DNA from: Dictyostelium discoideum
Taxonomy: Eukaryota
Assembly (NCBI GenBank): GCA_000004695.1
Contig: CM000154.2
Coordinates: forward strand, 2,112,001-2,176,000
Length of the DNA: 64,000 nt
Direction of reading: 5' to 3'
Below are positions 27,526 through 30,900 of the stretch, piece after piece. The notes below the pieces were generated by a model. It was not told where the DNA came from and made no database searches. It saw only the letters and a list, made by a program, of their open reading frames with translations. Position numbers and translations under genes: made by a program. Each line of letters begins with the position of its first letter. The stretch's first letter is position 1.

Positions 27526-27942
27526 CCCAAAACACCTTCTAACTCTAATTTTCTTAAAAAAATAATAAATAATAAATAATATATAATAAAAAAAGTATTC
27601 GTTCAAATAATTCAAGTTTTGTTTTAAATAGAAGTTATTTAAATTGTTTTAGAAAATTGGAAAATTTTGAATTATCAAATTTTATTTTAAATGATAATAT
27701 TTTTTATTCACCAATAACTAGTCAATCATTAAATACATTCTCTGTTATCTCTCCAAAAATAAATTTATTTTCTTTATCACAACAAATTAAATTAAATATG
27801 TCAATTTTAAAATTAGCTTTTACTGATTTAACTTCAATTTCTCCAATTACACTTCAATATTTACAAAATGTTAAAAAATCAAGGGAATTTTTATTATTAA
27901 AATTTATTATTATTATTACCATTATTAATATTTATAATATTG

Positions 27943-27992
<50 letters not shown>

Positions 27993-30900
27993 ATTTTTTT
28001 TTTTTTAAAAAACCCAAAATTTTTTTTTCATTTTTTTTAATTAATTATTAAAATAGACCATTTAGTAAAAATTCAGGATATATTGATTTTTTAAACAAGG
28101 GTAATCAAATTAAATTACCTTCAATTAATATTTCATCTTTATCAGTTCCAGATTTAACAAATATTGAAATTGAATTTTTGTAAGTTTTCCAAATTAAAAA
28201 AAAAAATAAAAAACAAAAAAAAAAAAAGAATAATACTAAAAATATTAATATTATTTTAGACAATTAACAGTTCCAGGAGTGGCAGGTGGAGGTTTTAATA
28301 CTAGTTCATTTGAAAATTTTAAATCATTTGGAAACGTTAAAAACTTTGTATATCAATCAGGTCCAAATAGATATCCAATTGAATTACATTCATTAACAAC
28401 AAATATAATGGAATCTTTAGAAATGTCATTAATAATTGGTACTGCATTATCAAATACTTTAGATTTTTCAATGTTTACATCTTTAAAAAAATTAAAATTT
28501 AGTAAATCATTAAATTTATTATATAATTCAAATCTTCCAATAGGACTATACCCACAATCTTTACAAGAATTGTATGTATATTAATTTATCATAAACACAT
28601 AAAAAAAAAAAAAAAAAAATTATTAATATTTTATTTTATATTATTATTAGTGATTTTATTGAAAATTCATTAATAAATTTCCCAGATTTATCAATAATTA
28701 AATCACCATTTGTTAATTTAACTGGTAATAATTTTACATCAATTACAATTCAATTTAATTCAAATTTTATTAAAACATTAGATTTATCAAATAATCCAAC
28801 TATTGAAAATACAATTGATGATAGTTTTTGTAAAACAATTACAATTTTAAAAAATAATTTAATGAATGGAATTTTACCAGATTGTATTAAATGTCATCTT
28901 AGTGATAGTACTATTTCATCTTGGTATTCTGGTAATAATTTTGATTTAACACCATTAATTGAATGTTCAAGTATAATTCCAAAAATGAAAATTTTAAATG
29001 GTAATACTTATTTATATGGTTCAAATTTAGGTTTTTTATCAAGCTCAATTAAATCAATACCATCAATTAATTTTCAAATTGATACTCCAAGTACAAGTTT
29101 TTATTCAACACCACAATATAAAACAAGTACACTTTTTAATATAAGTTTTACAAGTTCAGGTAGTAATAAACAATTTACAGTTAGTAATGATCCATATTAT
29201 CCAACACCGAAATCAATTACATTTAAATCAAATTCATTGGTTGAATTTATTGGTGAATATTTTACATATGATAAATCAATAGTAACAATTTTATTTGATT
29301 CAACAGTTAATTGTAGTCCAATTGAAGTTGATTTTTATAGAATTTTATGTAACTTAACTACAACACCATTACAAAGTAATTCAAATATTCCAGTTACAAT
29401 TAAAATTGATAATCTTTCAAGTTCATTAAAATTAAATTCAAATTCAATTGGTGTTATTAATCCAATTGAAAATTGTAAAGATAGTTGTAATAGAGGTGGT
29501 TCATGTAATTTTGAAACATTAAAATGTCAATGTGACCAATTACATTTTGGAGAATATTGTGAGAATAAAGCAATTCAATGCAAAGATCCAACATGTGGTG
29601 GTATTGGTATTTGTGATAAAACAATTGGTCAATGTGATTGTGGTTTATTTAATACTGGTGAAAGTTGTGAATTACCTGCTCATTGGGTAAGTTCAATTGA
29701 ACCACCTTTAGAATCTGGTGGTATTGTAATATTAAATGGTTATTTCGGTAATCAACATTCAAATCTATCTGTAACGATTGGTGGTAACCAACCATGCACA
29801 ATTAGTAATACTTCCCCACCAACTATATCAACTATAACTTGTTCAATCGGTCCTGGTGTTGGTATTAAAAATATAACAGTTATTCAAAATACTGTAACAT
29901 GGTTTAGTAATTCAATGTTTCAATATTTTAATGAAAATTATCATTGTCCAAATGATTGTTCAAATCATGGTACTTGTAATTCAAGTAGTGGAATTTGTAG
30001 TTGTACAAGTGATTGGTCAGGTTTTGATTGTAGTTCAAAATCAAATCATCAAACAAATACAACCATTGATAATGGTTCTGTTACACTTTCAAATCAAGAT
30101 ACTATTTATTCAATTTCAATTTATAAATTAATTGAAATCGATTTAAATGGTAATATAATAAAAGAATTTAATTTTACAAATAATTTATCATGGGATAAGT
30201 CAGTTATAATTGATCAAATTACAAATTCAAAAATTATTAAATATAATAAACAAATCATTTATGATTCTACAAATTTAAAATCAACAAATATAACAACAAC
30301 ATTTGAAGAAGTTACTAAAACTTCTGAAAGATCATTTGCTGGTGTTAATTTTCAATTGGAAAGGGGTTCTGTTAAATTATCAATTTCAATTACAAATTAT
30401 CCTTATAAAAATTATTTAAATTCATTACAACTTTTATTAAAATCAGATTCAACAAATGATAATAATTGTGATGATGATGATAATCAAACAAATTTAGAAA
30501 AAGCTCAAAGTCAAAATTCTCAATTAGATTATATTACAATTAAAAAACAAGATAAAGTTTTAAAAGGTCGTTTCATTAATCGTGTAATTTCTGATGATAG
30601 ATCTACATTTATAACAAATTCAATTAATCAATCAGAGTCATCACCTGATCAAATTATTATAACTTTTAATTTACCTCATTGTACAAAAGAATGTCTTTTA
30701 GATCCTGGTATGTAAATTAATATTTATAAATTATAAATAATAATAGTAGACTAAAATTTGAAAAAAATTATTAATACTTTTTTTTTTAAAAAATAATAAT
30801 TTTAGATTTCTCAGTTTTAGTTGATCCAGATTTTTCAACCTCTTGTGATTCAAAATCTCGTAAATGGGTTGTTCCAGTTGCTGTTGTTGTTAGTGTAGTT

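Follow-up and report, generated by a model that had tools for sequence, protein, structure and literature searches.

Clustered base-call errors as the probable cause of a missing splice donor in DDB_G0288957, a ComC-family gene of Dictyostelium discoideum

The first bases of intron 2 of DDB_G0288957 read GG in the window (the whole 64,000-nt stretch of D. discoideum DNA analysed here, to which all positions refer), and this GG is very probably the mark of a low-quality patch in the window's assembly; as judged from sequence comparison, the real junction would be a canonical GT-AG intron at 27884..28056. In the mechanism that we propose, poor base calls across a ~610-nt stretch (27627..28236) would have turned the donor GT into GG. 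Exon 2 would be vulnerable through the runs of 39 T and 47 A on its two sides (T39 and A47), where reads crossing the runs would lose register. The correct local sequence would read ...AAAAAATCAAT/GTAATTTTTATT... (a slash marks an exon-intron boundary throughout) and would give a 1054-aa protein, with intron 2 (27884..28056) predicted to split a codon after its second base (phase 2). The decisive errors are those of the donor itself, at 27885 (+2) and 27883 (-1). That the window variant is a technical error and not a real allele we infer by comparison. The gene most likely has six exons, as predicted from sequence, with ordinary U2-type GT-AG introns throughout.

Exon map and open frames

A ComC-family gene on the + strand begins at ATG 27259 in the window. 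Cluster membership of the relatives of its exon 5 translation identifies it as DDB_G0288957 of D. discoideum AX4. The AT content of the window is extreme, and its introns follow the Dictyostelium pattern, being short with a GTA.. start and an ..AG end. We mapped the exons from reading frames and splice signals and afterwards checked the map against orthologues:

Exon 1, 27259..27455, + strand: ATG and a signal-peptide-like N-terminus; 2 nt (AG) left over
Exon 1 donor, 27456, + strand: TAG/GTAATT, also written TAG/GTAATTATT
Intron 1, 27456..27595, + strand: 140 nt, GT..AG; holds the T39 run at 27487..27525
Exon 2, 27596..27883, + strand: 288 nt, 96 codons, phase 2 to 2; preceded by AAAAAAAG
Intron 2 donor site, 27884..27889, + strand: GGAATT in the window; GTAA(T/A/G)(T/A) in all seven relatives
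Intron 2, inferred, 27884..28056, + strand: 173 nt in the window against 144 nt in L005 (see below)
Exon 3, 28057..28179, + strand: 123 nt, 41 codons, phase 2 to 2; acceptor AAAATAG/, donor /GTAAGT
Exon 4, 28260..28571, + strand: contains the internal Met (MESLEMS) at which the AX4 database model starts
Exon 5, 28651..30707, + strand: end of the LRR-like region, beta-sandwich/IPT-like part, EGF repeats and ComC supersandwich domain
Exon 6, 30806..30993, + strand: transmembrane helix, short tail and stop TAG

Joined in this way, the six exons of the window (model A) encode 1054 aa with a single, terminal stop. The translation has a hydrophobic N-terminus, MDKILLVILFLFSAISINA, and a C-terminal hydrophobic stretch, VVPVAVVVSVVGFVALIVVSVLLY, which forms the single predicted transmembrane helix; the predicted product is a ComC-family type I membrane protein.

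The interval 27576..28037 is a single open frame of 154 codons, far longer than expected in DNA of ~16% GC, in which about one in ten random codons is a stop. A preliminary description of this DNA had reported two open coding blocks around the junction, and both are indeed open, the first within this frame and the second at 28057..28179, bounded by ..AAAATAG/ and /GTAAGT. Its limits for the first block, 27653..27900, enclose the 3' part of exon 2 and the first bases of intron 2. The 'ttttag' at its proposed start of 27653 is coding (C-F-R), and the conserved exon begins at 27596, where DNA conservation among the related assemblies sets in and where the L005 exon map also places it. Across 27596..27652 the orthologue proteins read SI(N/R)SNNSSFVLDSSYLNCFS-KLENF.

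Donor candidates at the exon 2/3 junction

Exon 1 leaves 2 nt, and the block from 27596 and that at 28057..28179 each take 2 nt, so that either can be joined to exon 1 in frame, as had been described. The intron 2 junction is in phase 2 in the window and in all orthologues, and its position in the orthologues is conserved. We checked each GT and GC of the first block for phase and product, and the full listing bears out the earlier observation that this block lacks a consensus-like donor in the required phase. GT 27721 (GTCAAT), previously named as the only phase-compatible GT, leaves 1 nt rather than 2 and leads to a stop at codon 120. The only frame-keeping GT in exon 2 is GT 27800 (27800..27805, + strand, likewise GTCAAT), which gives a 257-nt intron and a product of 1026 aa; the 356-nt intron of the preliminary description corresponds to neither. 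GT 27800 sits in coding sequence (N-M-S) conserved in all relatives. The ~22 donors that we picked heuristically elsewhere in the window all start with GTA, none having C at +3, and GTCAAT would therefore be a poor donor.

Other candidates are lacking as well. The full listing of the block's GTs contains none between 27871 and 28056, and the sole GC of the first block (27816) is in phase 0 and leads to a premature stop, leaving no GC donor in the required phase. Direct reading of the sequence found no U12-type donor (ATATCC, GTATCC) at the junction. The in-phase sequence at 27884 is AAG/GGAATTTTT in the window, also written AAG/GGAATTTTTATT. This context is donor-like: apart from the G at +2, where a donor has T, it closely resembles TAG/GTAATTATT of exon 1. 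The acceptor of intron 2, TAAAATAG/A (28049..28057), ends in AG after an A/T-rich tract; it is the same in six of the seven related assemblies, and the seventh (L004) has TATATAG/, retaining the terminal AG.

Orthologous loci

A search with the exon 5 translation found seven orthologous loci in other assemblies:

L005, L006 and L007: D. discoideum (three assemblies)
L002 and L001: D. cf. discoideum (two assemblies)
L003: D. citrinum
L004: D. dimigraforme

These assemblies were produced in a 2025 study by Nanopore plus Illumina sequencing of wild isolates and the laboratory strain AX2-214 (PMC12745789). Both the alleles and the neighbouring protein of L005 match those of AX4 exactly, so that L005 is probably AX2-214; the window itself is presumably the AX4 reference sequence. 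Window and L005 carry all lineage-specific alleles in common when set against the other assemblies compared, which places them in one strain background. Over 9.2 kb (window 24257..33500) they are 99.08% identical.

At the position homologous to 27884, all seven assemblies read AAATCAAT/GTAA.. (AAT/GTAATT in L005). The GT at +1/+2 of intron 2 is thus absent in the window (GG at 27884-85) and present in every relative, and the earlier suggestion of a non-canonical donor finds no support in this comparison. Splicing L005 at the homologous exon coordinates reproduces exactly the deposited protein KAM9947469.1 (1054 aa), with all five introns GT-AG. This D. discoideum entry (ACTFIT_000793, GCA_054883475.1) lies in the same locus, among the same neighbouring genes, as the window gene, has the same six-exon structure as the window model and encodes a protein identical to it outside exons 2-3. 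Nine residues differ, all within these two exons (window>L005: N77D, R78S, R85S, N94D, R162I, P163T, F164I, K176N and N186Y). Eight of them trace to bases private to the window; N94D is private to L005. An exact look-up of three window-derived protein models (A, B and C) in the protein collection returned no match.

The length of intron 2 varies strongly across the clade, and in L001 (3700..3800) it contains a long (ATT)n microsatellite, which the other species lack.

A patch of clustered mismatches between two homopolymers

The differences between window and L005 are strongly clustered. Within the 9.2 kb compared, 23 of 26 mismatches fall in 27627..28236 (binomial P ~1.5e-24), and the poly-A tract there also differs in length by 29 nt. 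Polarising the differences with L006, L007, L002, L001 and L003 (six aligned assemblies including L005) left 17 substitutions in the patch that are private to the window and absent in all six, among them those at 27883 and 27885 (both T>G). At 17/17 of these sites L005 agrees with every other aligned assembly, for which reason we rejected the idea that L005 is the faulty one.

The private substitutions have a distinctive form: all except one (16/17) duplicate the adjacent base. At the donor, TGT is replaced by GGG; ACT becomes CCC at 28013-15, and TGG becomes GGG at 28099. In 20,000 simulations with random placement this count was never reached (P < 5e-5). Transversions make up about two thirds of the private substitutions. 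Eight changes are AT>GC, and a neighbour is copied by seven of the eight new G/C bases in the patch. An excess of transversions and of AT>GC changes is not expected from spontaneous mutation in this AT-rich genome.

Two positions in the patch stand apart. The window-private A>C at 28236, in intron 3, changes AATAATAAAA to AATACTAAAA and is the one exception to neighbour copying among the private changes; the window thereby gains an ACTAA motif missing at that place in all relatives. At 27678 (L005 3410) the window and all relatives have A, and L005 has G, the base underlying N94D. This, the only L005-private change in the patch, could reflect a genuine SNP of the strain or an L005 assembly error; at least some of the difference within the patch is therefore not window error. 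Outside the patch, window and L005 differ at 31009, 31055, 31277, 32759, 32764 and 27168, all non-coding and adjoining homopolymers. The neighbour-copy look of the patch recurs in these differences, as in AAAAAGGGAAA versus AAAAAAGGAAA at 31277.

Exon 2 lies between T39 (27487..27525, intron 1) and A47 (27943..27989, intron 2). The homologous runs in L005 are T29 and A20, respectively. Reads across long homopolymers tend toward register loss, and loss of register at T39 and A47 would account for errors both before and beyond the tracts. Nanopore-based assemblies, too, are unreliable in the length of such runs, and the lengths T39/T29 and A47/A20 are to be taken as approximate. The intron 2 tract reads A47-GGG-A-T13-A6-CCC-AAAA in the window and A20-G-AAA-TTATAATATTTAAGAATACT (also written A20-G-AAA-TTATAATATTTAAGAATACTAAAA) in L005, and the ACTAAAA motif of the relatives that align there (L005, L006, L007, L002, L001 and L003) is ACCCAAAA in the window. 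Read side by side, the window's intron 2 looks like a smoothed version of that of L005. The preliminary description had offered a local sequence error in the neighbouring poly-A tract as one explanation. It named the right kind of cause, and the poly-A does differ; the location was too narrow, as the errors span ~610 nt and those that matter for splicing are in the donor.

The T39 and A47 runs are complementary to each other. Looping out of exon 2 by poly-U/poly-A pairing was considered and dropped, as such tracts are common in the window and these two are shorter in L005.

Alternative readings of the junction

If the window is correct, the patch would be a real and very recent cluster of mutations in the strain, arising for example by error-prone repair or slippage between the homopolymers, an explanation that we regard as unlikely. 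It would destroy the donor of intron 2 and the ACTAA motif, leaving three outcomes for the transcript: skipping of exon 2 (loss of 27456..28056, 958 aa), splicing at GT 27800 (1026 aa) or retention of the intron, with a stop at 28038. Several observations agree with it: exon 2 skipping and cryptic use of GT 27800 both keep the frame, exon 2 remains fully open in the window, L005 too has one private change in the patch, and localised hypervariability is known in Dictyostelium at the tgrBC locus (PMC12745789). That hotspot is, however, described as structural, consisting of duplication, recombination and gene gain or loss, not of clustered point mutations (PMC12745789). Real mutation would also have to explain why 610 nt hold ~20 substitutions and the remaining 8.6 kb only 3, between genomes that are otherwise identical. 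The base-substitution rate that PMC3466296 and PMC7466956 give for D. discoideum is ~2.5-2.9e-11 per site per generation. At this published rate, 1e5 generations per lineage would still be expected to put only ~0.003 real substitutions into 610 nt. The copying of neighbours and the bias toward transversions and AT>GC look technical. An accurate window would more specifically require a burst of ~20 point changes together with homopolymer expansions, confined to ~600 nt around two A/T runs, and we consider such a burst very improbable; were it true, an otherwise intact gene would have lost a donor and an ACTAA motif within the few decades that the laboratory lineages have been apart. Errors in the reference have precedent, as 1916 differences from it are common to AX4-derived lines and reference errors are among the likely causes (PMC3466296).

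Two further sources of real change were examined. Comutation by nitrosoguanidine in the history of the laboratory strains was rejected, as the changes are mostly transversions; the spectrum of this mutagen is G:C>A:T. A tblastn search of the window with the protein found no paralogue there, and the window thus offers no local donor for gene conversion.

The preliminary description also raised alternative splicing of the two blocks: two isoforms would arise, one with exon 1 joined to the 27596/27653 block and one with exon 1 joined to 28057. All three junctions are in phase 2 and either choice is in frame, yet continuing from the first block to exon 4 would also require a donor, and the block has none in the window as written. 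The blocks (96 and 41 codons) are dissimilar in sequence and non-homologous, they stand in series in all orthologue models, and the LRR_ComC region of paralogues aligns unbroken through the exon 2/3 junction; we give this scheme scant credence. A genuine non-canonical GG-AG intron spliced at 27884 would agree with the ancestral donor in position, phase and flanks (AAG/G.AATTTTT) and is scarcely conceivable nonetheless. The T at +2 of U2-type donors is close to invariant; all ~22 of the heuristically picked window donors start with GTA, all relatives have GT at the site, and the junction shows no U12-type consensus.

ComC-family membership and the public gene model

The C-terminal part of the protein is readily assigned. 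In Pfam, the ComC supersandwich domain (ComC_SSD, PF22933) matches with E = 4e-49 and 167.7 bits against a cutoff of 24, and EGF_2 and EGF_Teneurin also score above their cutoffs. The N-terminal region has no Pfam match to LRR_ComC (PF24141) or TIG at E <= 1. We therefore turned to profile comparison, in which the orthologue N-termini were aligned by hhalign with a profile of paralogue N-termini, two of which (P0154 and P0155) have Pfam LRR_ComC matches. The two profiles align with a probability of 99.3% (E = 3.5e-20, columns 1-323), and the alignment crosses the exon 2/3 junction unbroken. A homologue search with the spliced N-terminal 553 aa gave no match; low-complexity words probably swamped the candidates. 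The ComC family (Dictyostelium EGF-like domain-containing protein ComC; Pfam LRR_ComC, Beta-sand_ComC, ComC_SSD) includes hundreds of homologues of the EGF/ComC_SSD C-terminal region, and the full-length paralogues inspected have their overall layout in common with DDB_G0288957. The predicted product is a divergent member of the family.

The AX4 gene model in the databases, XP_636495.1 / Q54I84 ('EGF-like domain-containing protein'), differs from the six-exon structure at both ends. Its 742 residues are identical to those that the window encodes from the exon 4 Met on through exon 5. Without exons 1-3, it has no signal peptide and lacks the first ~250 residues of the LRR-like ectodomain; a predictor failing to bridge the exon 2/3 junction would yield such a model, which would account for its start. 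At the other end, it reads through the exon 5 donor GTATGT (30708) and ends in ..LLDP-GM*, without exon 6 and its transmembrane helix and tail. The predicted 1054-aa six-exon model should replace the 742-aa model. An insertion mutant of DDB_G0288957 has been used in a published study (PMC6637605), and the correct architecture of the protein bears on how that mutant is read. The biological weight of the junction is small, because it would be an ordinary GT-AG intron. More broadly, exons of this assembly that lie between long homopolymers appear able to carry clustered errors that mimic non-canonical splicing or pseudogenes.

Gene models at this locus vary in other assemblies as well. In L006 (1001..6425) and L007 (1001..6406), both from wild D. 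discoideum, deposited 1226-aa models join the ComC-family gene to a CfaA_B_C-family gene upstream, the orthologue of DDB_G0288931; these fusions are probably annotation merges.
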